Shown: in pieces, positions 2,089 through 15,506 of the stretch | Layout of the letters: every line of letters begins with the position of its first letter | Position numbering within the stretch: position 1 is the stretch's first letter | NCBI GenBank assembly: GCA_938003985.1 | Contig: CALKWZ010000073.1 | Coordinates: 6,295-70,294 of the forward strand | From: an uncultured Verrucomicrobiota bacterium | GTDB taxonomy: Bacteria > Verrucomicrobiota > Kiritimatiellia > CAIQIC01 > Lenti-01 | Length of the DNA: 64,000 nt | Direction of reading: 5' to 3' | The notes under the pieces: model-generated | The model's input: only the letters and a program-made list of their open reading frames with translations | Told to the model about the DNA's origin: nothing | The model's database searches: none | Translations under genes and position numbers: made by a program

Positions 2089-3828
2089 ATGAACCCACCC
2101 TCTTTCGCCCCCGTCCCCGCCGCGCGCCTCGAGGAATACTCCTCCGCCTGCACGCTCTCGGACATGGAAATCTTCGTTTTTCCGTCCCTGCTCTATCCCC
2201 TCGTCCTCGCCAACCTGATGTCGCCCGCCATCTGGAAATGGCGCGACGACCCGTGGTTCGCCAACTTCGCCAAGCTCACGCCGTACCGCCGCATCTTGCG
2301 TCTGAAGCAGTACGTCATGGACCACTACGCCTTCAACCTCGACCTCGAGACCTGGGGCCTCACCACCCAGGAACGCGAGATGGCGCGCTTTTCCCCGTAC
2401 CTCGCGCCGGAGACCATCGCCCAAAGCAACGCCCTGTTCGGCTACGAAGGCGACAAGTTCTACTTCTCCCTCGACATCCGCCGGCACTTCGGCCTGGACA
2501 AGTACACCCGCGACGTCATCCCGTACTGGAAGACCGAAACCGTCGAAGCCATGGACGCCTTCCGCTACAAGCCCGGGCACCGGACCGGCGCCGGCGAATG
2601 CGTCTCCCTCTCCACCCTCTACGCCGCGGCGCTCTATATCCTCTGCGGCATTTCCCTCGACGACGTCTTTCTCGTCGCCACCCCGCTCCACTCCCAGAAC
2701 TTCGTCGACGTCCACGACGGCATCCTCACCAACAACCGCCGGCTCGTCACCAAGGCCATGTGGTTCAACGGCACCGAACTTTCCGCCAAGGCCCGGCGCG
2801 CGCTCGAACACGAGCAGGTGACCATCGTCGCCCACCGCACCGGCTGGGTCCACGCCGTCTATCCCGAGGCCTCCATCGACCACGCCGCCTACGAGCGCTT
2901 CCGGGCCAAGCTGGGCGCGTTCGTGCGCACGCCCGTCACCTCCGAAATCCTGTTCAATTTCCTGCGCCAGAATCCCGCGCGCCAGAAATGCTTCCAGATC
3001 GAACACGCCTGCTGCGGCAAGCGCCGCTGGATCCCCGCCGAACGCGCCTATGCCTTCGAGAACTCCTGTTCCTTCAAGGTCTCCGACCGCACCCGCGACA
3101 AGCTCCTCGCCGAAATGGACGAGGACGATTTTTTCGCCGAGCCCCTGCCCGACCGCATCCCCCTCAACAAGTTCGACGAATTCTTCAAGCAGGGCCAGGT
3201 CGATCTCGACAACGAAGAAGACCTCCAGCGCCTCGCGCGCGAAGTCGACTGCTACCACGCCGGCGCCTGCGAGATCATCAAGGAACTGCGCGCCTTCTGC
3301 CACCTCGAACCCCGCTGGCCCGACGCCGGCCAGCCGCGCCAATTCGTCCGCGGCCCCGCGATCGACCTGCCGCCCGGCCTGACCCGCGAAGAAATCATCG
3401 CGACCCTCGCAGCGCAGCGCGCCGCCAATCCCGTCGCCGATCTCGCGTTCTACGCTTTCCGCGATCTGGCCCGCACCGATCCGCGCCCGTTCCTCAAGGC
3501 CGCCATCGAACGCTCGCCCGTCTGCGTCGAAGCCGCCAAGACCATGGAACTGTCCATGATCCTCGCTTGCTTGCGCGAAATGGAAGACGAATCCATCTAC
3601 GACTCCACCCGCGCCGCGCAGCCCGACGAAGTCTGGAACGCCCACCGCGGCGACGGCTTCGAAAAAGCCCTCGTCCTCGCCGCCATCCTGCATGCCCGCG
3701 CCCCCGCCGCTTCCTTCACCCTCCGCGCCGCCGGCGAAACCGCCACCTTGGTCTTCGACGGCAAAGAATACCCCTTCGCCACCCGCAAAGGCCTGCAGCT
3801 CGACCTCGCCTGGCCCCTCGCCACTTGA
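2089..3828 (+). CDS. Transglutaminase-like (Cys-His-Asp core) domain protein, hypothetical
   Basis: Start MNPPSF at 2089. The core GAGECVSLSTLYAAALYILCGISLDDVFLVATPLHSQNFVDVHDG matches the transglutaminase-like cysteine protease arrangement C...H...D. It is divergent from the ArnT-like gene. Confidence 0.55.
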   Translation: MNPPSFAPVPAARLEEYSSACTLSDMEIFVFPSLLYPLVLANLMSPAIWKWRDDPWFANFAKLTPYRRILRLKQYVMDHYAFNLDLETWGLTTQEREMARFSPYLAPETIAQSNALFGYEGDKFYFSLDIRRHFGLDKYTRDVIPYWKTETVEAMDAFRYKPGHRTGAGECVSLSTLYAAALYILCGISLDDVFLVATPLHSQNFVDVHDGILTNNRRLVTKAMWFNGTELSAKARRALEHEQVTIVAHRTGWVHAVYPEASIDHAAYERFRAKLGAFVRTPVTSEILFNFLRQNPARQKCFQIEHACCGKRRWIPAERAYAFENSCSFKVSDRTRDKLLAEMDEDDFFAEPLPDRIPLNKFDEFFKQGQVDLDNEEDLQRLAREVDCYHAGACEIIKELRAFCHLEPRWPDAGQPRQFVRGPAIDLPPGLTREEIIATLAAQRAANPVADLAFYAFRDLARTDPRPFLKAAIERSPVCVEAAKTMELSMILACLREMEDESIYDSTRAAQPDEVWNAHRGDGFEKALVLAAILHARAPAASFTLRAAGETATLVFDGKEYPFATRKGLQLDLAWPLAT

Positions 3829-4400
3829 TCAGTTGAAAATCCCCTTTTTTGCCCGCCCAAGCCCGTTTGCGAGGCATTTTTTTTGGCGATTTATTGCCTC
3901 CGCAGGCCTCTCCGGACCCGCCAAGCGCCTGCCCAGCCCTAAAAACCCCCGATTAAGCAGGAAAACAGGAAACACACAGGAAAACAGGATCAAGCCCCCA
4001 TCCCTTCCTGTTTTCCTTCTAAAATTCCCCGTTTTCACGGGTTTAGGCCGATTTTCGGCCGTTTTCGTGGTTTGTGGCCCGTTTGGGACCTGTTTCGGGC
4101 CCGTTGCGAGCCATTTTCGGCCCTGAAAACGCCCTCCGCGGTCATTTTCGTCCGAAAAATGCCTCCCGAGAGCCTCCTTTTGCGAAGGAGGCATTGCGCG
4201 GCGCCCCGAAACCGGCATAAAGCCTCCTTCGCGCTCGGTTCACGCCCGCCCGCCCGCGCCCTATTCCCCAAGCCCGCAGCCCGTTGCGCCATTGACCCAC
4301 CCCCGCCTTTCCGCTATCCTTTTGCCACTCAGGAAGATTCACCCCGCCACGTAAAACCTCCTTGAAGGAGGGTGAATAAAACGGTTCTGCAAAAGGAAAT
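3829..4400. promoter_or_regulatory. Long repeat-rich noncoding leader (570 bp) upstream of the low-GC cassette
   Basis: No credible ORF. Direct repeats CAGGAAAACAGGA occur at 3958-3970 and 3977-3989. At least six (A/G)TTTTCG(G/T) motifs flanked by CC/GG lie between 4029 and 4153. Perfect 8-bp hairpin GCCTCCTT-ttgcg-AAGGAGGC at 4172-4192 and a 5-bp hairpin CCTCC-ttgaa-GGAGG at 4357-4371. Half-site CCACGTAAAA at 4347-4356. SD AAGGA lies 6 nt before the ATG at 4401. Confidence 0.4.
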
Positions 4401-4787
4401 ATGAAAAGCAACTTAATGATAGCACTCGGCGTAGTCGTTGTATTATCGCTTATGGGAGCAACGGTATTTATTGGTCTGCAATCCATGAGCGCTGCACATG
4501 CGGACATCCCCCCGCCGACAGTTAAGACCATTTCCGATTTTCGCTCCTGGCGCCCTACTTTTACCACTGCGCATCTCATTACTTTCGGCTGGTCTAGCAA
4601 CTACTACATTGACAATGACAATGCGCGATACAGCTCACGCGGGCCGCGCACATATGTTTTTAGTACATCGGGAAAATATCTTGAGACGTCGGACCTTACG
4701 GCCGATATGCGCAGCTTTGCATTTGCCGCCAGCAAAGGCGTAAACATTACTAGGGTTAATATTGACGATATACCAATACCGGAATGA
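4401..4787 (+). CDS. Hypothetical small secreted protein (low-GC islet, ORF-A)
   Basis: 128 aa with signal peptide MKSNLMIALGVVVVLSLMGATVFIGLQSMSAAHA and SD AAGGA upstream. Local GC is about 45% against about 70% background. No recognisable family. Confidence 0.55.
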   Translation: MKSNLMIALGVVVVLSLMGATVFIGLQSMSAAHADIPPPTVKTISDFRSWRPTFTTAHLITFGWSSNYYIDNDNARYSSRGPRTYVFSTSGKYLETSDLTADMRSFAFAASKGVNITRVNIDDIPIPE

Positions 4788-4798
4788 ATAATGCGCAG

Positions 4799-4862
4799 AA
4801 CAAGCGGGTCCAGGGTACCCGCCACAAGGTGTCGGATCCCCTGACCCGTGACGTTCGACGAA
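4799..4862 (+). repeat. 64-bp direct repeat, copy 1 (about 94% identical to 5491-5554)
   Basis: aacaagcgggtccagggtacccgccacaaggtgtcggatcccctgacccgtgacgttcgacgaa, located at the ORF-A/ORF-B junction. Imperfect internal dyad (cgggtccagggtaccc / ggatcccctgacccg). Confidence 0.85.
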
Positions 4863-4866
4863 TAAA

Positions 4867-5553
4867 ATGATTATGCGCACAATGGCACATCACCGATACG
4901 CGGCCATCATAGCTGGTGCATGCAACGCTATTATCGCCACTTCCGCCATGTCCGACGACATTCCTTGGATTACGCTTGAGAACATCAGCCTGAATCCAAC
5001 CAGCTTTTATGTGTCCATCAATGTAACCAATACCTGGTCACCATATTATTTCGCCCTGGAGGCATACGAAGGAGAACCTGTGGGGTCCACCGGCGGGGTT
5101 GAGCGAGCCATCGTATCCGATTGGGTGCAAGGAACGGGCTCGGCCTTGGTCTTGTATGACACCTCTGCCCCCTTGTCTCAATCAGGGCGTACATACAATG
5201 TCGCGGTCACTCCGGATATCGGAGGATTCTACATCCTTGGTCCAAACGAAATCTTTGCCCCTTATCCCTTCTTCAGATCGCCCGACATTTCTTCGATCAT
5301 CGTAACGCCAACAAATGCGGGCCAAGTCTTGGCCATCACATATGGCGAGGGCTTGTATACCAATACGGTCTATGTCTTGAGTGACGAAGCCTCGGGGTTC
5401 ATTCGAGTCAAGGGAACCAACAATATCCCGACAAATGCGGTCATCGAGCGCAGCACGGATCCCATTAGATGGGCCACAAAAAAAATGTCGAACAAGCGGG
5501 TCCAGGGTACCCTCCACAAGGTGTCGGGTCCCCTGACCCGTGACGTGCGATGA
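4867..5553 (+). CDS. Hypothetical secreted protein (low-GC islet, ORF-B); C-terminal 20 aa encoded by repeat copy 2
   Basis: 228 aa with signal-like N-terminus MIMRTMAHHRYAAIIAGACNAIIATSAMS and a beta-rich body. GC about 48%. Tail ...NKRVQGTLHKVSGPLTRDVR. The stop overlaps the next start as ATGA. Confidence 0.55.
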   Translation: MIMRTMAHHRYAAIIAGACNAIIATSAMSDDIPWITLENISLNPTSFYVSINVTNTWSPYYFALEAYEGEPVGSTGGVERAIVSDWVQGTGSALVLYDTSAPLSQSGRTYNVAVTPDIGGFYILGPNEIFAPYPFFRSPDISSIIVTPTNAGQVLAITYGEGLYTNTVYVLSDEASGFIRVKGTNNIPTNAVIERSTDPIRWATKKMSNKRVQGTLHKVSGPLTRDVR

Positions 5554-5554
5554 A
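5491..5554 (+). repeat. 64-bp direct repeat, copy 2
   Basis: aacaagcgggtccagggtaccctccacaaggtgtcgggtcccctgacccgtgacgtgcgatgaa has 4 mismatches to copy 1 and spans the ORF-B end and the ORF-C start. Confidence 0.85.
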
Positions 5555-5972
5555 GAACGACCGGAAACTGCTGCGAAAGGTTGGCGCGCTGGCCATCCTG
5601 CTGGGCGTTTATCCGGCGTTTGTTCTCGGCTACTCGTGGAGTTGCGTGCTGCGGTCGGATTTGCGCGGCGGCCGGCATGGCCCGCTCGATGCCTATCGCC
5701 ATGCTCTCGCCAGCGCGGTGGTGGCGTACACGTTGAACGAGTCGGCGGTTGACCTCATCACTGTCCTGTTTGAATCGAAGGGCAAGGACTCCAATCGCAT
5801 GGACGGCCACAACAACCGCATCGGGGCCCGCCTCGGCGCCCACGCCGATTCATTCCGCGACCTTGAACCCGCCGTGCGGCAACATGTTGGGAACGGCGCC
5901 GTCGCTGCGGTCGAACCGGATCAAATCACCTGGTTGCCGGAGAACAAATGGCGCGATGGTTGGATTTGGTGA
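5550..5972 (+). CDS. Hypothetical membrane-anchored protein (ORF-C)
   Basis: 140 aa with N-terminal TM (VGALAILLGVYPAFVLGY). The ATG is embedded in repeat copy 2. GC is intermediate (about 62%). No recognisable family. Confidence 0.45.
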   Translation: MKNDRKLLRKVGALAILLGVYPAFVLGYSWSCVLRSDLRGGRHGPLDAYRHALASAVVAYTLNESAVDLITVLFESKGKDSNRMDGHNNRIGARLGAHADSFRDLEPAVRQHVGNGAVAAVEPDQITWLPENKWRDGWIW

Positions 5973-6005
5973 CCGGTCCATGAAAATGCCATTCCCATAA
6001 TCGCC

Positions 6006-6389
6006 ATGCTCCGCCTCTACGTAGATCAGATCGCGCGGTTGTTTCCGGACGCTTCGAAGGCGGAGCTGCGGTTGCTGCTGGCGGCGCGGCGGGCGATTCT
6101 GAAGGCCGTTCCGGCCTGCCACGAGCACGTCAAATGGGGCGCGCTCTCCTACCAGAAGCCGGACCCGGACGGCGCGATCAAAGGCGGCATCTGCCAGCTT
6201 TATCATTGGCGCGGCCAAGTCCTGGTGGGCTTCGTCCACGGCGCGTTTCTGCCCGATCCCGCGCGGCTGCTGCAAGGCACCGCCAAGGCCAAGCGCACGC
6301 TCCCCATCCCCGCCGCCGCCTTCCTGAAAGACCGGCGTTTTCTCGATCTGCTCCGCGCTTCCGCCCGGTTCGATCCCTGCAAGCCGTAA
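6006..6389 (+). CDS. DUF1801 (YdhG-like) domain protein
   Basis: 127 aa containing HEHVKWGALSY, typical of DUF1801. Confidence 0.65.
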   Translation: MLRLYVDQIARLFPDASKAELRLLLAARRAILKAVPACHEHVKWGALSYQKPDPDGAIKGGICQLYHWRGQVLVGFVHGAFLPDPARLLQGTAKAKRTLPIPAAAFLKDRRFLDLLRASARFDPCKP

Positions 6390-6461
6390 AGCGGCGGAAT
6401 ATCGAAATTGACCTCGAACCGGCGCGGAAATTGCGCTACGAATCCGCGGTGAGGAATCCCG

Positions 6462-7604
6462 ATGGCGTTGCGCGTGTTGATCGTACCGGACAAGTTCAAG
6501 GGGACGCTGGCGGCCCCGGCGGCCGCGGCGGCGATCGCCCGCGGCTGGAGCGAAGCGCGGCCGCAGGATGTTCTTGAACTCGTGCCCATGTCCGACGGCG
6601 GCGAGGGCTTCGGCGAATTGCTGGGGACGCGGCTCGGCGCCGCGAGGCGGACCTGCGCCACCGTGGATGCCGCGGGCCGGCCTTGCCGCGCGGAATGGTG
6701 GGCTGCACCGGAGGCCGGCACGGCGATCTTCGAGACTGCGCAGGTGAACGGTCTGGCCCGGCTGCCGCCCGGGCAATTCCACCCCTACCAGCTCGACACG
6801 TTCGGCATCGGCGCGGTGCTGCGCGACGTCGAACAGGCCGGTCTCCGCCGGTTGATCCTCGGCCTGGGCGGCAGCGCGACGAACGACGGCGGCTTCGGCC
6901 TGGCGCGGGCCTTGGGTTGGATTTTCCGCGACGGCGCCGGGGCGGAAATCCGGTCCTGGACCGAGCTGGACCGGTTGGCTGCGGCGGAACCCCCGCCGCG
7001 TCCGCTCGGTTTTGAGCAGATCGTCGTCGCGGTGGACGTCGCAAATCCCCTGCTCGGTCCCACGGGCGCGACGCGGGTCTATGGTCCGCAAAAGGGCCTG
7101 AAGCCGGAAGACCTGGACCGGGCCGAACGCTGCCTCGCCCGGCTGGCCGCAACGCTCAAGCCGCAACAGGGCCCCGCCGCCGAACAGGAACCGGGCGCGG
7201 GCGCCGCCGGCGGACTGGGCTACGGCTTGAAGGCTTTTGTCGGCGGCGCATTCCGGCCCGGCGCGGCCATCTTCGCGGAACTGGCGGGACTGGATGAAAA
7301 GATCCGGCAAGCGGATCTGGTGATCACCGGCGAAGGCGCGCTGGACGAGCAATCGCGGATGGGCAAAGGCACGGGATTCGTCGCGGATCTGGCCGCGCGC
7401 GCAGGCAAGCGCTGCCTGTGCCTGGCGGGGCGGATTTCGCCGTCGTTCCGCGTTCCCTCCCCCGACGGGGTCGTCGGGGGCGCCAAGGACTTCGCGGCGT
7501 GGGCCATCGTGCCCGACGTCGCGACGGAGACCGAATCGCGCGCGCACCCGGCGGAATGTTTGCGGCGCCTGGCGGCCCGCGCGGCGGCGCAAGTTGTTGG
7601 ATAA
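6462..7604 (+). CDS. glxK: Glycerate kinase
   Basis: MALRVLIVPDKFKGTL..., GGEGFG, GGSATNDGGFG and ITGEGALDEQS are conserved glycerate kinase motifs. Confidence 0.85.
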   Translation: MALRVLIVPDKFKGTLAAPAAAAAIARGWSEARPQDVLELVPMSDGGEGFGELLGTRLGAARRTCATVDAAGRPCRAEWWAAPEAGTAIFETAQVNGLARLPPGQFHPYQLDTFGIGAVLRDVEQAGLRRLILGLGGSATNDGGFGLARALGWIFRDGAGAEIRSWTELDRLAAAEPPPRPLGFEQIVVAVDVANPLLGPTGATRVYGPQKGLKPEDLDRAERCLARLAATLKPQQGPAAEQEPGAGAAGGLGYGLKAFVGGAFRPGAAIFAELAGLDEKIRQADLVITGEGALDEQSRMGKGTGFVADLAARAGKRCLCLAGRISPSFRVPSPDGVVGGAKDFAAWAIVPDVATETESRAHPAECLRRLAARAAAQVVG

Positions 7605-7692: not shown

Positions 7693-10600
7693 TCAGGGCG
7701 CGCGCTGGACGCCGATGCCGTAGAAGTAGGTGCCGAGTTCGGCGGGGGCGGCGTTGGTGTAGCCGTTGGTCGGGGCGGTGGCGCCGATGTTGCCGACGTG
7801 CTGGGTGAAGGGCCCGGCGACGTTGGTCGCGCGCCAGATCGAATAGACGCGGCCGGTCACGCTGGGCCAGCGGAAAACCAGGTTCGCCGTCGCGGTCTGG
7901 TTGGTGGCGTAGGGCGCCAGCGCCAGCACGGACGAATTGGTTTTCGGATTCGTGCCGGCGATGAATTCGTCGTAGTTGCTCCGGCCGTCGCCATCGTCGT
8001 CGCCCGCGGGCACGCCGTTGGTCGCGCCGCTGAAATAGGTGCTTTCGTACACGTCCGGCATGCCGTCGCCGTCGCTGTCGGCGTCCGGATCGGTCTGCAC
8101 GCCCGTCACGATCACGTCGTCGAGCGCGATGTTGCTCGTCACCTTGTTCCAGGTGAACCGCAGCTGCGTCGCGGATTCGGACAGATCGAAGGCGTAGGTC
8201 GTACCGACGTTCGACGGGTTGGTGACCACGCCCACCGTCGCCCAGTTCCCGCCGACGTACTGCGCCACCTCGAAGGTGCCCGTCCCCGCCGTCGTGACCG
8301 CCCGCATCCAGAACGAGACGTTCGTCGCGCCGAAGAACGTCGGACTGGCGATGGCGTCGCCGTCGCTGTCGAATTTGACCGACGGCGCCGCCCGGCCGTA
8401 GTAGGTGGCGGGATAGTTCGTGGTGACGCCGCTGAACGTCCAGCCCGCGGGCACGGCGGGCGTGACGTCGAAGGGCTCGTCGATCAGCGTGACGGAATTC
8501 GTGTCCGGCTCGGCCACGTAGGTCGCGGCGAAGGAGTTGGTCGTGCCGTTGGTCGTGGCCGTCGCGACGTCGGCCGGCGCGATCCAGCCCGTCGCCGCGC
8601 CGAACGACACCGTGTGCGCGCCGGCGGTCAGGCCGGTGGCGGCGGCGCCGCTGGCGCGCCACGCGCCGCCGTCCACGCGCCATTGCGCGCCGGCGGCGAC
8701 GGCCTCGGCGGGCTGCAGCGTGACGGACAGGGCGCCGGTCGTGGGCGGCGCCGCCCCCGCCTGCCCCTTGAGCTGGATCTCGTCCAGGTAGTAGAAATCG
8801 TTGGTGTTGTTGGCGCTCGCCGCGTCGAAGAAGACCACGCGCGCCATGATCTGCGTGCGGACGTCGGCGATGGCCAGCACGTACGGGGTGCCCTGCGGCT
8901 GCCGGTTGGTGTCGACCAGCGTCCCGTACTCCAGCTGCAGGTTGCTCAGGCCGTCCGCGATCTGCGTGCCGATGGCCGACGGCGACCACGTCGCGCCGCC
9001 GTCGTAGCTGACGGACACGTGCAGGTCGTCGCCGCTGTCCGGTCCGTTGGCCGCGAACGGGATCGTCAGCGTCACGTTCGTATAGCCGCTGATGTCCACG
9101 TTGCCCAGGACCACCGCCGGATTGACCGCCCCGTTCGTGGACCCGCGCAGGCGCACCGCGCTTGCGCCGGACAGCACCTTGTCCGCGTTCGTCGCCGCGG
9201 CCGCGCCGAAATCTTCGTTGGTCGCCAGCCCGCTGCCGTTCAGGGGCACGTAGCTCCAGCTCCAGGGATGCACGTCCGCGCCGTCGAAACCCTGCGACGC
9301 GATGCAATCCGCGCCGGCGGGCTGCAGGACGTAGGTCCGCGTCACGGTGCCCGTCGCGCCGGAGACGACCGTCACGTTGGTCGCGGCGGGCGTAGCGTAG
9401 CCCGCAACGGGGCCGAAGGTCACGGTATAGCCACCGGCGGCCAGATTGGTCGTGGCGCCCGCGGCGATCCAGCTCGCGCCGCCGTCGAGGCTCCACTGCG
9501 CGCTCGCCGGCGTCAGGTTCACCGTCAGCGCCCCGGGCAGGTCGGCGTAGGTCTTCGTGAAGGACGCCGCCTCGCCCGCGGACAACGCGTAGTTGGTCGC
9601 CGCCGGCGCGGCATAGCCGCTCACCGCCAGGAAGCTGATCGTGTGCGTCTTGACGGTCAGATCCTGGACGGTGGCCCCGCTCTCGTTCCAGTTGGTGCCG
9701 CCGTCCACGCTCCACGCGGCCCCGGCGGCCACGGCGCCGGCAGGAGCCAGCGCGACCGTGATCGAGCCGGGCAGCGCCGTGTAGCTGTAGGACCGGACCA
9801 CGTTGCTGTTGGCGTAGACGGTCGTGTAGCCCGTATCCGGCACCACGTAATTCGAGACGGTCTTGAAGGTGAAATACTGGCGGCCGGCGAGCAGATCATA
9901 GGCCGTGGCGCCGCTGTCGTACCAGGTGTTGCCGCCATCCACGCTCCACTGCGCGCCCGCGGACACGGCCGCCGCCGGACTCAGGTTCACCGTCAGGTCG
10001 CCCACCAGCGCGACGTAGGCGCCCGTGATGGAAACCGCGGCGCCGGCGATGGTCACGTTGGACGCGGCGGGCGTCGTATGGCTGTCGACGTCCTGGAACG
10101 TCACCGCGTAGGTGCCGTTGGTCAGGTTGGAGAGCGTGGTGCCGCTCGTGCGCCAGACGGCGCCGCCGTCCACGCTCCAGCGGCCGTCGGCCACGGCCGT
10201 GGCCGGCGTCAGCGTCACGGTCAGCGAGCCGGAGGCCGAGGCATAGACGGAGGTGAAGACGTTGGTCGCGCCCGCGGTCACCACGACGGACGTCGCGGCC
10301 GGCGTGAGATACCCGTCCACGGCGCCGAAGGAAACCTGGTAGGTGCCCGCATTGAGGCCCGTGCGCACGCTGCCGCTGACGTTCGTGGTGCCGGCGACGA
10401 TCCACCGCCCCGCGTTCGTCGCGGCCGCCGGCGAGAGCACGACGCGGATGGCGCCGGGCACGGCCGAATCGCCGAGGAACTGCATGGCCTTGGTCATCAC
10501 GGTCGCGCGGGTTTCCGCGTTGGTGATGGTTTCGAACGGGAAGCCCATCACGACGGTGCGGTAGGTGGCGTTGCTGTACTGGACGATCGCGCCGCTGGTG

Positions 10601-13600
10601 CCCGCGGCGCTCGCGCCGTACACCGCGGCGGTGACGCCGCCGCTGCCGACGCGCAGCACGTCGGGATAGTTCGCCGCGTAGACCTGCGGCAGCAGGTTCG
10701 TGTAGTTGAAGGCGATGGAGACGCCGTTGAGGAAGCCGCCGGCCGTGCCCGTGACCTGGCCGGTGGCGCCGCTGTCGGCCGAATAGACCGCGCGCAGCAC
10801 GTTGGTGAAGAAATTCACGTCCGCGGCCGAGGACACCCCCGCCCGGCCCAAATCCCAGCCGATTTCCGCGCCGGAAACGAACAGCCGGCCGCCGGCGTTC
10901 AGGTAGGCCGTCGCGGCGGTCTGTTCGGCGGAGCCGAAGGTCTCGTCCACCGTGGATTCCTCGCCCAGGATCCAGACGACCTTGGCGTAGTTCGTCAGCA
11001 GCGCCGACGAGACGAGCGCGGCGCCGACGTAGTCGAAGGTCTGCCCCGCCGCCGCCAGCGCGAGGCCGTGTTCCTTGACGTAGTCGAAGTGGTTGATCAT
11101 CCGCGGCCGCACCAGCGTCACGTTGCCGTTGAGGCCGTTGGCGAAGTAGCGCGTCGGCGCCAGGCCCGCGTCGTTGCGCGTGAAGCCGTCCACGACGAGC
11201 ACGCCCGCCTTGGCGCCGCCGGAAGTCACGCGCACGCCGGCCACGGCGGAATCGAACGACTCGCCGCCGGCGTTCGTCGCGCAGACCTTGAAGAAGATCG
11301 TCGCGCCCGCGTTCAGGTTGGTGACCACCTTGTTCGTGGCGCTCGCGCCGGAGACCGGGATGGGATTGCCGAAACCCTGGCCGTCCGTGGAGGTATAGAG
11401 GACGAAGCCCTGCGGCAAGCCGCCGCTGGCGGCGTCGCGCGCGGGCATGGCCCACGACACCGTGACCTGGCCGCTGCCGGAATTGACCGCCTTGAGGTCC
11501 GTCGGCCGATCGGGCGCGTTGGTGTTGACGATGCCGCTGGCGTAGTAGCCGGCCAGGTGCTTGATCAGGCCGCGCGCGGTCGCGCGCGCCAGCCATTCGC
11601 GGCCGGCGGGCAGCTTCAGCACCGCGCAGTCGTTGGAGTTGTCGTGGAACGCCACTTCGTTGATCGTGGTGTCCATCTTGAGGAACACGCTGGAATTGTA
11701 GATTTCGCCGTAGGTGCTGCCGTAGAGATAGCCGGTGCGCGTGCTCCAGCTGGGGATCACGCTGTTCGTGCCGGCGCGCAGGTCGACGTTGCACTGGCGG
11801 GCCAGCGCGGCGGCGAGGTTGGTCTGCGCGGCGTAAAGGGACGGATAGCCGGACTGGATGCGCGTGTCGTAGAGGCCGATGGCGCCGCGGCCGGTGCCGT
11901 CGCCGGCGTTGGAGTGGAAGCCCACGTAGACCCGCTGCCAGCGCGCCGCGTCGTTGGAGCGGCACATGTAGGCCGCCATGCGCGCGGGCTGGCCGATGTT
12001 GTCGCTGCGGTCGTCGTAGCCGGCCAGGTCGTAGAGCGTGGCGTCCATCCCCTGCCCCATGGACTTGATGGTCCAGAAGCGGCCGGATTCTAGTTCCGAT
12101 TCGAAGCCCGAGATCCCGGCCGTGCCGCGCGCGACGTTGCCGCGCCCGTTGCCGAAGCGGATGGCGTCGGCGAAGACGGACGAGCCCTCGGCGCCGCCGG
12201 GCGCGTAGTTGCCGATGTTCACGCAGCCGTTGGTGCCGGCTTCGAAGTGGTAGTTGCCCAGCCAGACCCAGCCGCAGCCGACGTCGCGGTGGTTCACGCG
12301 CACGTCCGTCACGCCGCCGGAATGGTACACGCGGTACAGCTGGTTGGCGCGGTCGGAACCGTGGCGGACCCAGGTGTAGACCGGATATTCGCCGGCTTCG
12401 GGCAGATTCGGCCGGTAGGAGGCCCACGACGTCGAGCCGTTGGTGCTGATCGCGGCGTAGCGGTACGGCACGGCGTCGCCGGCGTTGCCGTAATAGATGG
12501 ATTGCGTCGAGTTGTACCACGTGCCGCCGAAGGTGACCTTGCCGCGGGCCGTCTGGTTGGTGTCCATGTTGTCGAGCACCACTTCGTTCGTCTGGTAGCC
12601 CAGCGGCCGGATCGGGACGACCGTGCCGCCGGCCTTCCAAACCGCTTCCGCGAACCGGTTCATCTGGTCGACGTTGCCCATGTCCTCGTTCACGGCGAAC
12701 AGCAGCGGGCGTTCGGGGATCCACGCGGTCAAGGCCTCGTTCGCGCCGAAGCCGTGGCCGGCGCTGGTGTAGACCACCACGCCGGACAACGGACCGGTCG
12801 GCTGGGCCGCCGCGACCTGCGGCAGGCCGGTTTCGTCCGGCGTGCCCAGCGGTTCTTCGCCGCCGCCGGTTTCGCCTTCGCCCCCGCCCGTCTCGCCGCC
12901 GCCTTCTTCCGCCGCGGCGCCCATCGTGCCTTTGGTCAGGATCGTGCCGTTGTAGCCGACGGCCACGAACTGGTCTTCGGCATAGCTGATGCCGCGCAGG
13001 AGATTCGTCGTGCCGGAGGTTTCCGCCTCCCAGGTCAGGCCGTCGGTGGAACTCCAGATCGACCCGTTGGCGCCCGCCGCCTTGAACAGGCCCGAGCAGT
13101 AGGCCGAGCGGTAGAAATAGACGCTGTTGGTGGTGAAGCTCCAGGAAAGCCCGTCGGAGGAACGCAGGATCCGCTGGTTGCCCACGGACACGTAGTAGCC
13201 GTTGCCGTACGTCACGTCGGAAAGATACTGGGAGGTGCCGGACGTGCGCGGCGTCCAGCTCAGGCCGTTGCTCGACGTCAGGATCAGGCCGCTCTGGCCG
13301 ACGATGACGAAGAGCGGGGATTCCGCGGACGCTTCGTTCGTGTCGCCCGCGTTCACGAAGTCCATGCCGTAGCCCACGCCCTGCAGCGACGCGTTCGTGC
13401 CCGACGCCACCGCCGACCAGGTCGCGCCGTCGGTCGAGCGCACGATCGCGCCGCCGTCGCCGCAGGCCACGTACGTGCCGTTGCCGTAGGCCACGCCGCG
13501 GAACAGCGCGTTCGTCGGCGAGGTCCGCGACGTCCAGTCGAGGCCGTTGGTGGAGGTGACGATGGCGCCGCTTTCGCCGACGACCACCCACAGCGGGCCG

Positions 13601-15288
13601 TCGCCGTTCACGTTCATCAGCAGGCCGCTCTTGCCGCTGCTGCGGGCGGTCCAGTCGATGCCGTTGGTGGAGGTGTAGAGCGCCCCGCCGGCCCCGCTGG
13701 CCACGTGCAGGCCGGCGCGACTGCCCACGCCGTAGAAATTCGCCGTATGGGCGGACACGCGGTTCGTCCAGGGCGCGGTCGCCGAGGAACCGCCGGTCTC
13801 GCCGGGATCCGGATCGGGCGGCGGCGCCGCGCCCGCGCCGAACTTCTCGTCGATCAGCTGCCAGAGTTCCGTCTTGCCGGTGCCTTGCGTGAGGTTCCAG
13901 ATGCCGATGCCGCCCATCCCCTTCGTATTGGACAGGTCGTACTTCATCCCGAGGCTGGCGACGTCGTCGTAGAAGCACTGGTAGGCGGTGCTGTTGGAGA
14001 CGTAGACGTAGTACGGCACGCTGCCGTTGTTGTCCCATTTCTTGCCGTACTTGGCGGCTTCCGATTCGCAGGCGCCGTAGGTCAGCGCGGCGGAATAGGC
14101 GCTGCCGAGGCTGGCGGCGCCGAGGTTCGTGCTGGCGGCGGCCCAGCGGCGCCCGTAGTACGGCACGCCCAGCATCAGTTTGTTCGTCGCGATGCCCTTC
14201 CCCAAATAGTAGTTCATGGAGTAGTTCACCGAGCACCACGAGCTGGCGCCGATCCACTGCGCGCTGCTGGTCAGCGGCGCCACCGGGCCCGGCGTGCCGC
14301 TGCCGGAATAGTAGTAGTCGTAGCCCATGACGATCGCGTAATCCATGCCGAAGGCGGCGTAGTTGGACACCGCGAAGTTCGCGTACCAATCCACCGACGG
14401 CAGCGCGATCGAGATCTCGTAGTTCGGATTCGCCGCGTGGAACCGCGTCGTCAGGTTGCTCATGAAGGTCGTCAGCGCCGCCGTCGCGCCCGTCCACGAG
14501 CCCACGCCTTCGAAATCGATGTTCACCCCGTCGCCGTCGCCGGGCAGCGTGCGGTTGGTCATCGCGATCAGCAGCTGGGTGATCAGGTTGCTGCACGCGA
14601 CGGAATTCGTCAGGAACCGGTGCGTGGCGGCGTCGCCGAACAGCGTCGCCGTCAGCACGACCTTCACGCCGTTGCTGTGCGCCCACTCCACCACGGGCGA
14701 CGTGCCCCACGAGCCCATGCTGTCGGCGTTGCCGTTGGTGGAATTCACCGCATAGGAGAAGTAGGCGATGGTCGTCAGGTTCGTGTACTGGTAGTTCTGG
14801 ATATCCGTCATCGTCGCCCAGGACGGATGCCAGCCCAGCACGCGCTTGCCCGCGGCGATGGCCTTGGGCGCCGCCAGCGGCTGGACGGTCGGCTTGGGCT
14901 GCCGGGACGGCTTGGCGGTCGGATCGAAATCGGTCGGCGTTTCGCCTTGGTGTTCCTCGAAGGCGATCTGGAGCGGGCTCTTCCAGTCGGCCAAATATTC
15001 CGGCACGACGAAGGCGGCCTGCTCGGCCTCCTCTTCCGTGGCGCCCATTTCAAGCGCGGTCGCTTTCGCCAGGCTGCGCGCGCGCGCCACGGCGGGCGAC
15101 GTTTCGGCGACGTCCGGAATTTCCGGCAGAGCCACGTCCACGCCCGTTTCGTCCCAGGCATCTTGCCCCGCCACCTGGTTTTCGGTACCGGCCGGGACCG
15201 GTTCGTCCAGACCTTCCGCCCGCCCGCCGGCCAGCGTTAGACAAAAGAACAGCCCGCCCAATACGCCCACGTGAATGCGCCGATTCAT
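7693..15288 (-). CDS. Giant secreted multidomain protein (2531 aa) with GH18 chitinase-like domain
   Basis: Start MNRRIHVGVLGGLFFCLTLAGGRAEG (signal peptide) at 15288..15286. Domains in order: GH18-like (DGVNIDFEG); BNR/Ycf48-like beta-propeller (STNGLDWTSRTS, SSDGLSWSF, STDGLTWEAETSG); Amidase_3-like (VVVYTSAGHGFGANEA ... GFHSNAG ... AFHDNS); FN3; ThuA/GATase1-like; about eight Ig-like repeats (G..TV.LSPA.A..GA.WSVDGG..W); choice-of-anchor-like module; TSP3 Ca-binding repeats (DPDADSDGDGMPD, GDDDGDGRSNYDE); conserved C-terminal tail. The upstream in-frame extension to 15471 was rejected. Confidence 0.85.
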   Translation of the reverse strand: MNRRIHVGVLGGLFFCLTLAGGRAEGLDEPVPAGTENQVAGQDAWDETGVDVALPEIPDVAETSPAVARARSLAKATALEMGATEEEAEQAAFVVPEYLADWKSPLQIAFEEHQGETPTDFDPTAKPSRQPKPTVQPLAAPKAIAAGKRVLGWHPSWATMTDIQNYQYTNLTTIAYFSYAVNSTNGNADSMGSWGTSPVVEWAHSNGVKVVLTATLFGDAATHRFLTNSVACSNLITQLLIAMTNRTLPGDGDGVNIDFEGVGSWTGATAALTTFMSNLTTRFHAANPNYEISIALPSVDWYANFAVSNYAAFGMDYAIVMGYDYYYSGSGTPGPVAPLTSSAQWIGASSWCSVNYSMNYYLGKGIATNKLMLGVPYYGRRWAAASTNLGAASLGSAYSAALTYGACESEAAKYGKKWDNNGSVPYYVYVSNSTAYQCFYDDVASLGMKYDLSNTKGMGGIGIWNLTQGTGKTELWQLIDEKFGAGAAPPPDPDPGETGGSSATAPWTNRVSAHTANFYGVGSRAGLHVASGAGGALYTSTNGIDWTARSSGKSGLLMNVNGDGPLWVVVGESGAIVTSTNGLDWTSRTSPTNALFRGVAYGNGTYVACGDGGAIVRSTDGATWSAVASGTNASLQGVGYGMDFVNAGDTNEASAESPLFVIVGQSGLILTSSNGLSWTPRTSGTSQYLSDVTYGNGYYVSVGNQRILRSSDGLSWSFTTNSVYFYRSAYCSGLFKAAGANGSIWSSTDGLTWEAETSGTTNLLRGISYAEDQFVAVGYNGTILTKGTMGAAAEEGGGETGGGEGETGGGEEPLGTPDETGLPQVAAAQPTGPLSGVVVYTSAGHGFGANEALTAWIPERPLLFAVNEDMGNVDQMNRFAEAVWKAGGTVVPIRPLGYQTNEVVLDNMDTNQTARGKVTFGGTWYNSTQSIYYGNAGDAVPYRYAAISTNGSTSWASYRPNLPEAGEYPVYTWVRHGSDRANQLYRVYHSGGVTDVRVNHRDVGCGWVWLGNYHFEAGTNGCVNIGNYAPGGAEGSSVFADAIRFGNGRGNVARGTAGISGFESELESGRFWTIKSMGQGMDATLYDLAGYDDRSDNIGQPARMAAYMCRSNDAARWQRVYVGFHSNAGDGTGRGAIGLYDTRIQSGYPSLYAAQTNLAAALARQCNVDLRAGTNSVIPSWSTRTGYLYGSTYGEIYNSSVFLKMDTTINEVAFHDNSNDCAVLKLPAGREWLARATARGLIKHLAGYYASGIVNTNAPDRPTDLKAVNSGSGQVTVSWAMPARDAASGGLPQGFVLYTSTDGQGFGNPIPVSGASATNKVVTNLNAGATIFFKVCATNAGGESFDSAVAGVRVTSGGAKAGVLVVDGFTRNDAGLAPTRYFANGLNGNVTLVRPRMINHFDYVKEHGLALAAAGQTFDYVGAALVSSALLTNYAKVVWILGEESTVDETFGSAEQTAATAYLNAGGRLFVSGAEIGWDLGRAGVSSAADVNFFTNVLRAVYSADSGATGQVTGTAGGFLNGVSIAFNYTNLLPQVYAANYPDVLRVGSGGVTAAVYGASAAGTSGAIVQYSNATYRTVVMGFPFETITNAETRATVMTKAMQFLGDSAVPGAIRVVLSPAAATNAGRWIVAGTTNVSGSVRTGLNAGTYQVSFGAVDGYLTPAATSVVVTAGATNVFTSVYASASGSLTVTLTPATAVADGRWSVDGGAVWRTSGTTLSNLTNGTYAVTFQDVDSHTTPAASNVTIAGAAVSITGAYVALVGDLTVNLSPAAAVSAGAQWSVDGGNTWYDSGATAYDLLAGRQYFTFKTVSNYVVPDTGYTTVYANSNVVRSYSYTALPGSITVALAPAGAVAAGAAWSVDGGTNWNESGATVQDLTVKTHTISFLAVSGYAAPAATNYALSAGEAASFTKTYADLPGALTVNLTPASAQWSLDGGASWIAAGATTNLAAGGYTVTFGPVAGYATPAATNVTVVSGATGTVTRTYVLQPAGADCIASQGFDGADVHPWSWSYVPLNGSGLATNEDFGAAAATNADKVLSGASAVRLRGSTNGAVNPAVVLGNVDISGYTNVTLTIPFAANGPDSGDDLHVSVSYDGGATWSPSAIGTQIADGLSNLQLEYGTLVDTNRQPQGTPYVLAIADVRTQIMARVVFFDAASANNTNDFYYLDEIQLKGQAGAAPPTTGALSVTLQPAEAVAAGAQWRVDGGAWRASGAAATGLTAGAHTVSFGAATGWIAPADVATATTNGTTNSFAATYVAEPDTNSVTLIDEPFDVTPAVPAGWTFSGVTTNYPATYYGRAAPSVKFDSDGDAIASPTFFGATNVSFWMRAVTTAGTGTFEVAQYVGGNWATVGVVTNPSNVGTTYAFDLSESATQLRFTWNKVTSNIALDDVIVTGVQTDPDADSDGDGMPDVYESTYFSGATNGVPAGDDDGDGRSNYDEFIAGTNPKTNSSVLALAPYATNQTATANLVFRWPSVTGRVYSIWRATNVAGPFTQHVGNIGATAPTNGYTNAAPAELGTYFYGIGVQRAP

Positions 15289-15506
15289 AGTAACGAGAAT
15301 CGTCACAAAGCCCGGTTGCGGCGTCAAGCGCGGGGTGTCCTGAAATCGACATTTGGTTTTTGTTAAATCTGGGCCAGAAGCCCATTTTATGTTTGCCAAC
15401 CGGCGGCGTGCAGAGCGAGGATTTCCCGCGTGATGGCGGCACGCCAGGTCGGGATCGGGTTTCCCGGCCATTCACGGCGAGCCGGCATTGCCCTAACGGA
15501 GGTCGC
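15289..15506. promoter_or_regulatory. Divergent intergenic control region between the two giant genes
   Basis: 218-bp AT-richer spacer (tttggtttttgttaaatctgggcc...). GGAGG SD lies 6 nt before the ATG at 15507. A weak sigma54-like GGCACG-N4-GTCG element was not pursued. Confidence 0.3.

Follow-up and report, generated by a model that had tools for sequence, protein, structure and literature searches.

The stretch of DNA analyzed here (the window) comprises 64,000 nucleotides (nt) from an uncultured Verrucomicrobiota bacterium of the Kiritimatiellia lineage, and near its 5' end it carries a pair of direct repeats at two consecutive gene junctions which, on the evidence given below, very probably represent integron attC sites (59-base elements). 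A repeat search of the window placed the copies at 4798-4865 and 5490-5557, corresponding to 68 nt at 93% identity with a start-to-start distance of 692. Copy 1 lies between open reading frame (ORF) A (4401-4787), the stop codon of which is found 11 nt before the copy, and ORF-B (4867-5553). Copy 2 makes up the final 20 codons of ORF-B and includes the ATG of ORF-C (5550), with an ATGA overlap between the two genes. On the plus strand the features follow one another as leader, cassette 1 (ORF-A), attC copy 1, cassette 2 (ORF-B), attC copy 2, ORF-C, a DUF1801 gene, and a glycerate kinase gene. The initial annotation, made from the letters alone, described a pair of 64-bp repeats on two cistron junctions, and this description holds: four mismatches separate the copies over those 64 nt (93.75%), and the ORF layout and the ATGA overlap are as stated. 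The peptide encoded in copy 1 (the NKRVQ... frame) is indeed out of phase with ORF-A, and the gene between the repeats is low in G+C, which amounts to 49-53% across an island of ~4350-5550 compared with 65-73% on either side and a genome average of 67%.

Each half of the repeat, with up to three mismatches allowed, occurs at two places only in the 64 kb (chance expectations 0.01 and 0.00), and a covariance model of the element, run with filters off, gave the same two sites (82 and 80 bits), the next match scoring 9.9 bits with E = 0.75. The imperfect internal dyad that had been noted is real, and folding showed it to be part of a single imperfect hairpin formed by the whole repeat. For copy 1 as DNA, folding gave -19.2 kcal/mol on the minus strand (z = -4.2, equalled by 0 of 200 shuffles) and z = -2.1 on the plus strand. 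The sense-strand RNA folds of the two repeats are at -32.6 and -33.7 kcal/mol (z about -3.1 to -3.6).

In bacteria carrying integrons, attC sites have been described as having a conserved triplet, R and L boxes, an unpaired central spacer, extra-helical bases, and a variable terminal structure (Cury et al. 2016, PMC4889954). Copy 1 can be laid out accordingly at 4795-4859 on the plus strand (80.1 bits; predicted crossover 4853|4854), with R'' GCAGAAC at 4795-4801, L'' at 4804-4815, a terminal stem-loop of 23 nt at 4816-4838, L' at 4839-4849, and R' GTTCGAC at 4853-4859. Copy 2 occupies 5487-5551 on the same strand (81.9 bits; predicted crossover 5545|5546), with R'' GTCGAAC at 5487-5493 and an atypical R', GTGCGAT, at 5545-5551. 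The conserved triplets are thus AAC at 4799-4801 and 5491-5493, GTT at 4853-4855, and GTG at 5545-5547 in copy 2, and the central spacer reads AA on one side and GAC on the other. Both copies have a single bulged base in the 5' arm (at 4810/4811 in copy 1), which is C on the top strand and therefore G on the bottom strand, the canonical identity of the extra-helical base there. A second extra-helical base (T) was not identified in the folds of the two sites. From AAC through the G of GTT (55 nt) the copies differ at two positions, and the remaining two mismatches lie past the recombination point, as part of the next segment.

In order to find further copies, one exact pattern, a 20-mer from the 3' half of the sequence type seen in the window (W), was scanned against 185,579 species genomes. 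The scan gave 53 loci, ~38 of them with a full-length and nearly identical W element in unrelated AT-rich flanks, so that the element is widespread. Nearly all full W elements belong to Kiritimatiellae/Verrucomicrobiota metagenome-assembled genomes (MAGs), and a genome often has them on several contigs. Chance matches of the 20-mer within coding DNA (Nocardia, Streptomyces, Rhodococcus, and others) made up about a third of the scan results and were discarded. Full W elements were also seen on short contigs assigned to bins of Bacteroidales, Lachnospiraceae, Bacteroidota, and Bacilli (L015, L025, L040, L035, L061, and L045; L-numbered labels denote contig loci from other genomes or MAGs). The MAGs concerned come from the same studies as the Kiritimatiellae MAGs, and mis-binning of cassette arrays seems more likely than sharing across phyla.

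The family falls into two sequence types, W and L (core GGCTATCGGCGCCAAAGCGCGCC), both bounded by ...AAC-AA... and ...TGAC-GTT.... RNAalifold, applied to an alignment of 13 sites, recovered the hairpin incompletely, since W and L pair in different registers in the terminal stem, and the shared helices of the covariance model built from 13 sites were therefore specified by hand. The model matched 148 sites in 42 other loci from Kiritimatiellia/Verrucomicrobiota MAGs. The sites lie on one strand, in arrays among small unrelated ORFs, with a maximum of 16 sites in 8 kb (L042), and co-oriented arrays with the element at the 3' ends of ORFs were observed in the window and in L001, L005, L007, L042, L044, L064, and more. 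Contigs encoding homologues of ORF-B show the same picture of small co-oriented ORFs in runs, with hairpin elements of ~65 nt between them. Conservation is limited to the segment from AAC to GTT, with the four bases outside each triplet being variable, and it starts at AAC whatever the reading frame, so the earlier statement that it is set by a DNA boundary and not by protein stands. Among ~135 distinct sites, the A, A, and C of the first triplet are present in 122, 125, and 125, and the G, T, and T of the second in 133, 130, and 123. The family consensus, R-Y-C-S-AAC for R'' and GTT-S-G-R-Y for R', is close to the canonical RYYYAAC/GTTRRRY.

The hairpin is also supported by covariation. In the family alignment 83% of cells are paired as against 66% in shuffles, the former figure being somewhat inflated by an alignment fitted to its own model, and the covariation score is 0.344 as against 0.093 in shuffles, of which 0 of 500 reached the observed value. 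Double changes occur at 15 of 15 pairs (e.g., CG 62/GC 47, GC 60/UA 48, and GC 74/CG 37). When the 3' partner was slid by 1-3 columns the score fell from 0.344 to 0.02-0.09, so the register is specific. Members of ~122-134 nt were also observed (L014 5943-6064; L053 3284-3407; L044 4279-4402 and 4639-4762; L061 2713-2835; L040 713-835; L034 4448-4581), which keep the R and L boxes but have a far longer terminal structure. They occur in the same arrays as the short members, and short and long attC classes therefore coexist.

Integron recombination leaves a characteristic signature at cassette boundaries. If crossover falls between G and TT of R', the TTnnnn found after a site belongs to the next cassette and should pair with the R'' of the next site. 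For 91 cassettes flanked by two detected sites, we compared the TTnnnn at the cassette start with the nnnnAAC of the cassette's own downstream attC, and all four positions were complementary in 62 (mean 3.34). The R'' of a site compared with its own R' gave a mean of 1.74, and random pairing gave 1.75 +/- 0.10 (maximum 2.05 in 2000 trials). Most of the misses are long intervals in which an intermediate site probably went undetected. Both cassettes of the window match at four of four positions. Cassette 2 (4854-5545, 692 nt, plus strand), which holds ORF-B, starts TTCGAC (4854-4859), complementary at 7 of 7 positions to the GTCGAAC of its own attC once the G is added. Since R'' of attC copy 1 is GCAGAAC, cassette 1 was predicted to begin with TTCTGC, its exact complement, and this was found as G|TTCTGC at 4384-4390, 11 nt before the start of ORF-A. 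Cassette 1, carrying ORF-A, thereby extends over 4385-4853 on the plus strand (469 nt, 49% G+C).

Integrases were sought by tblastn with hand-entered IntI1 and XerD sequences as queries, and with the integrase found in L017. The L017 protein is 49.5% identical to this IntI1 query over 317 aa, and it matches the NCBIfam family TIGR02249 "integron integrase" with 463 bits (cut-off 265) over the full length of the model (1-315/315), in addition to PF00589 and PF13495. As in a classical integron, its gene is placed divergently beside the first cassette, and this cassette terminates in an element of the W type. In L019 an IntI-like gene, 40% identical to the L017 protein over its N-terminal half and cut off by the edge of the locus, is followed by a leader like that of the window and then by attC sites.

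Other recombinase genes were observed close to family members. In the Kiritimatiellae MAG FR_21 (L024 3566-5573), a W-type attC is followed within ~100 nt by genes for a tyrosine recombinase (28% identity with IntI1; PF00589 and PF13495) and a transposase of the IS91 family (Zn_Tnp_IS91 and Y2_Tnp), and L056 is an identical copy of this unit on the opposite strand, so that it is present on two large contigs. One possibility is an IS91-type element for which attC sites are either target or cargo. L037 (279-1350 and 2505-3743) encodes an integrase-like protein scoring 196 bits against the TIGR02249 cut-off of 265, apparently without the IntI-specific insertion. The start of this protein is 16 nt from an attC, and another attC on the same contig directly follows an IS110-family transposase.

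Syntenic loci were retrieved through close homologues of the neighboring glycerate kinase, the locus being marked by a 578-aa gene on one side and the DUF1801 gene, glycerate kinase, and a giant GH18 protein on the other. In L066 the order is leader, 253-aa ORF, attC, ORF, attC, 127-aa ORF, attC, DUF1801, glycerate kinase. In L068 the leader is followed by a transmembrane protein, a W-type attC 91% identical to copy 1, a UPF0259 protein, an attC relic, DUF1801, and glycerate kinase. L070 and L071 have only 275 nt between the 578-aa gene and glycerate kinase, without leader, cassette, or DUF1801 gene, and 3817-6401 of the window is without counterpart there. Cassette content at this single chromosomal site thus differs from relative to relative, and in a more distant one the site is empty. 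ORF-B is moreover found with at least five different sets of neighbors, and a homologue of ORF-A (64% identical) resides elsewhere, in the array of L001.

In summary, the sites of the window have the sequence, shape, context, and chimeric organization of attC, are linked to IntI in relatives, and lie at a locus that varies by whole cassettes. We conclude, with a probability of roughly 0.93, that the two repeats are integron attC sites ending two gene cassettes, in a chromosomal array without a nearby integrase. Among the readings offered in the initial annotation, that of a cassette boundary or recombination site has thus been made precise, and that of a mobile intergenic element was loosely right, the mobile unit being an ORF together with its attC. 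Each site is an imperfect palindrome in which the R'' box closes with AAC and is separated by two spacer nucleotides from an L'' arm carrying a single extra-helical base; a short terminal stem-loop, the L' arm, three spacer nucleotides, and an R' box opening with GTT follow. Its bottom strand, when single-stranded, would form a hairpin recognized by shape by the integron integrase (IntI), and cleavage between G and TT of R' would release a circle of ORF plus attC or allow a circle to enter at attI or at another attC. An IntI encoded elsewhere in the genome, or on an incoming element, would act in trans, and the array was presumably built in this way and is possibly still mobilizable. The leader junction would serve as the acceptor of incoming cassettes, which the leader promoter would transcribe. 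IntI recombination, promoter activity, and the present-day mobility of both cassettes are what we infer from this arrangement.

Several observations weigh against this interpretation. The tblastn searches with IntI1, XerD, and the L017 integrase found no integrase gene or recognizable remnant in the 64-kb window, leader included, which spans 4.8 kb upstream and 58 kb downstream of the array. Complete integrons, in which an intI with the IntI-specific extra domain adjoins the array, are seen in the relatives (L017, and the IntI-like gene of L019) and not in the window. R' of copy 2 starts with GTG, and G at the third R' position was found in only 2 of the ~135 distinct sites; by its deviating triplet copy 2 may be weakened or crippled, leaving cassette 2 perhaps partly frozen. 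Textbook attC sites have a variable terminal structure, whereas the terminal loop of this family (CACAAGGTG / CCAAAG) is comparatively conserved. At the bulged position the top strands of the family are split about evenly between C and G, whereas the canonical bottom-strand base is G, and the pairing percentage carries the inflation mentioned above.

The strongest competing explanation, in our view still very unlikely, is that of an intergenic palindrome resembling repetitive extragenic palindromic or bacterial interspersed mosaic elements (REP/BIME), or miniature inverted-repeat transposable elements (MITE), that stabilizes or processes a polycistronic mRNA without any site-specific recombination. 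Such a role would fit the good folding of the sense-strand RNA, the constant orientation of the element between cistrons, and the unusually conserved loop. It leaves unexplained, however, why the complement of the four nucleotides following GTT is found in the R'' of the next downstream site and not in that of their own site, as well as the AAC/GTT ends, the linkage to TIGR02249, and the differing gene content at one locus. An Rfam scan of 3500-6500 gave only two sub-threshold chance matches and nothing relevant, the element itself matches no Rfam family, and no transposase of the REP-associated (RAYT) type was seen. The element has no T-run and is therefore not an intrinsic terminator. An effect of the hairpin on mRNA could still arise as a side effect of an attC site.

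The initial annotation also proposed a conserved C-terminal tag, in sorting or secretion of small secreted proteins, which ORF-A would have lost by a frameshift. The repeat does form the last 20 codons of ORF-B, and copy 1 encodes nearly the same peptide in another frame. We identified 45 homologues of ORF-B in metagenomes and Kiritimatiellia MAGs, most of which end in ...WTSE* (~203 aa), just before the element, and only a subset continue into "SRTSGSRVPSTRCRVP", the element in another frame. Both remaining frames are used by further ORFs, with tails such as SRTSGSRVPSTRCRVP and QQAGPGYPPQGVGSPDP, and unrelated ORFs of L017, L024, and L037 end in "...AGPGYPPQGVGSPDP", the third frame. With all three frames in use, and conservation starting at the DNA triplet AAC irrespective of frame, the tag and the decay of ORF-A by frameshift are refuted, and we give them next to no weight. 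In an AlphaFold (AF2) model ORF-B has a confident beta-sandwich core and a tail (residues 204-228) predicted to be disordered, with a predicted local distance difference test (pLDDT) score below 50. The apparent conservation of the ORF-B tail is a by-product of a lost stop codon and read-through of its own attC, the ORF-B stop being 8 nt past the crossover. A recent local tandem duplication of one gene 3' end, suggested by two copies only in the window that are close together and 93% identical, is likewise refuted, since the DNA between and beside the copies is unrelated and the element recurs in ~38 near-identical copies with unrelated flanks elsewhere and in 148 family members.

With the repeats read as attC sites, the boundaries of the genes are set and an odd repeat pair gains a precise and known mechanism: the last 20 codons of ORF-B are read-through and not a functional tail, and ORF-A and ORF-B are mobile cargo and not core genes. 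Searches of Pfam gave no match for ORF-A (128 aa, with an N-terminal hydrophobic segment), for ORF-B, or for the flanking 580-aa and 590-aa proteins, and a fold search with the ORF-B model returned only generic Ig-like beta-sandwich matches (E > 0.002, template modeling score about 0.3). At window 5470-5490, homologues of ORF-B read ...ACATCGGAATAG, with the stop just before the attC, as against GCCACAAAAAAAATG with an A8 run and the stop removed in ORF-B. A metagenome protein (P0001) that is otherwise 100% identical to ORF-B ends in ...HKVSGPDP, corresponding to a 1-nt length difference within the attC stem, which may be real variation or an assembly error.

Upstream of cassette 1 is a non-coding leader or platform of 556 nt (3829-4384, plus strand), in which no ORF has coding-like composition and of which 4143-4384 is conserved in other arrays. 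A promoter scan revealed a candidate cassette promoter (Pc) at 4292-4320 on the plus strand, a putative sigma-70-like TTGACC-17 nt-TATCCT pointing into the cassettes, and the leader runs into an attI-like insertion junction, AATAAAACGG|TTCTGC (4376-4390, plus strand), with a predicted crossover at 4384|4385. Window 4143-4390 shares 80% identity (248 nt) with L064, where the stretch again runs to ...AATAAAACTG|TTCTGC, ahead of a cassette with R'' GCAGAAC in its attC. Partial leader matches were found in L036, L001, L066, and L068, the homology ending at the G|TT junction. Both promoter hexamers and their spacing are kept in the leaders of L001, L036, L064, L066, and L068, and in L019 as TTGACA...TATCCT. 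Seven further leader copies (L014, L019, L036, L051, L064, L066, and L068) end AAAC(T/G)(G/T)|TTnnnn, with nnnn as the exact complement to the next attC, making eight such junctions with that of the window (AAAACGG|TT). The copy in L019 is ~300 nt from the IntI-like gene. L014 belongs to the same genome as L019 (CAYMTY01) and has a nearly identical leader, with no integrase in the 5 kb upstream, and two leader copies each are present in L064 and L051.

The leader thus appears to behave as an attI/Pc module, in the window without intI, which is a plausible but unproven variant. More tentatively, and at slightly less than even odds, the leader may be a self-standing attI/Pc module in a distributed integron, with several copies per genome, mostly without an adjacent integrase, and one trans-acting IntI serving many platforms. 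If so, promoter-equipped acquisition platforms would be scattered over Kiritimatiellia/Verrucomicrobiota chromosomes, one of them at the glycerate-kinase hot spot of the window.

Within the leader end (4340-4390 in the window, and likewise in L019, L014, L051, L064, L066, L068, and L036), two direct repeats (A)TAAA(A/G)C surround a short hairpin, the second repeat being followed by N-G|TT. The hairpins differ in sequence and keep their pairing (CCTCC...GGAGG in the window, CCGAC...GTCGG in L019, CGTACG...CGTACG in L051, GACC...GGTC in L068), and the repeats and hairpin could be candidate integrase binding sites. The upstream end of the leader shows an inverted repeat of reiterated short motifs (CAGGAAAACAGGAA ... 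TTCCTGTTTTCC, window 3953-4023). Inverted repeats of the CAGGAAAACAGGAA/TTCCTGTTTTCC type were seen near other arrays (L001 8043-8121; L036 1039-1101; L066 4576-4637 and 4892-4974; L068 5753-5830), and analogous ones with other motifs at the L070 empty site and after the L072 array (CACAGAG.../...CTCCGTG) and in L068 (CATTTGCG...). Between the inverted repeat and the conserved promoter, window 4030-4170 holds reiterated "CATTTTCG / GTTTTCG / TTTCGGCC" motifs, and similar ones are found in the L068 leader. A second promoter-like match (CTGACC, 16 nt, TAAAAT) at 4841-4868, extending from the 3' arm of attC copy 1 into the beginning of cassette 2, has no equivalent in copy 2 and is probably due to chance.

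At the distal end of the array (5550-6389, plus strand) lie ORF-C (DUF6973, 5550-5972) and the DUF1801 gene (6006-6389). ORF-C was considered as plain chromosomal backbone; the comparative data suggest instead that it and the DUF1801 gene lie within the variable block. Before the DUF1801 gene there is directly an attC in L066 and an attC relic in L068, a W-type attC abuts the ATG of an ORF-C homologue in L074 as in the window, and in L072 the ORF-C/DUF1801 pair follows an attC array at a different chromosomal place. Neither ORF-C nor the DUF1801 gene is followed by an intact attC in the window, and all that is visible is the relic of an attC 3' end behind ORF-C (~5968-5990). The two genes are probably old cassettes or hitch-hikers at the distal array end, a cassette status that the comparisons of gene order suggest with lower confidence than for ORF-A and ORF-B. 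Just downstream of glycerate kinase, a GH18-domain protein of 2592 aa is encoded on the minus strand (7693-15471). The relatives have a giant protein at the same position, of 2527-2537 aa with GH18 and Golvesin_C in L065-L069, and of 2039 aa with an extra fn3 in L070 and L071.

Integrons, attC sites, and clusters of attC sites lacking an integron integrase (CALINs, as defined with IntegronFinder; Cury et al. 2016, PMC4889954) are already well known, and the same study lists Verrucomicrobia in one line among the clades with integrons. A full-text literature search found no description of integrons in Kiritimatiellia, and the IntegronFinder 2.0 paper mentions neither Kiritimatiellia nor Verrucomicrobiota. 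The present analysis adds a well-supported attC family for these groups, with about 150 sites, covariation, the cassette signature, and a cognate IntI.

The attC of aadA7, from mobile class 1 integrons, is about 60 bp long. The window's sites resemble it in length, in AAC/GTT, in R and L boxes, in the unpaired central spacer, in the extra-helical base of the bottom strand, and in the G|TT crossover. They differ in that the base next to the triplet is S (C or G) instead of Y/R and in the conserved loop; in addition, a plasmid collection gave no match to the element, and the host is a member of the Verrucomicrobiota/Kiritimatiellia and not of the Proteobacteria. The superintegron of Vibrio cholerae, a sedentary chromosomal array, has sites (VCR, Vibrio cholerae repeats) of about 120-130 nt. 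Shared with it are attC sites highly similar within a lineage, many small co-oriented ORFs of unknown function and atypical composition, and a cassette content that differs between close relatives. In contrast, the sites here are ~65 nt, two are present in the window with no intI, and those of the MAGs are spread over several loci and not concentrated in a single large array.

Cassettes inserted by IntI at positions other than att sites, termed attG, have also been described (Loot et al., bioRxiv 10.1101/2022.09.11.507474). Like attG insertions, the cassettes of the window are chromosomal, lie away from intI, and could be expressed from a nearby promoter. The insertion point, however, is a sequence that recurs across loci and genomes and that is the integrase-proximal site in L019, and it is therefore attI-like rather than attG. 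With two attC sites on the plus strand 692 bp apart and no integrase in the window, the array is a CALIN. It resembles the CALINs of Cury et al. 2016 in having at least two same-strand attC sites within 4 kb, no intI nearby, and cassettes of unknown function without resistance genes, and other contigs of related genomes carry complete integrons and further CALINs. Unlike CALINs as usually described, the cluster is preceded by a conserved promoter leader and an attI-like junction, and in L019 the same leader neighbors an IntI-like gene. The recurrent integrase-less leader, with its candidate promoter and attI-like junction, is the single feature of the array that goes beyond the usual description of a CALIN.

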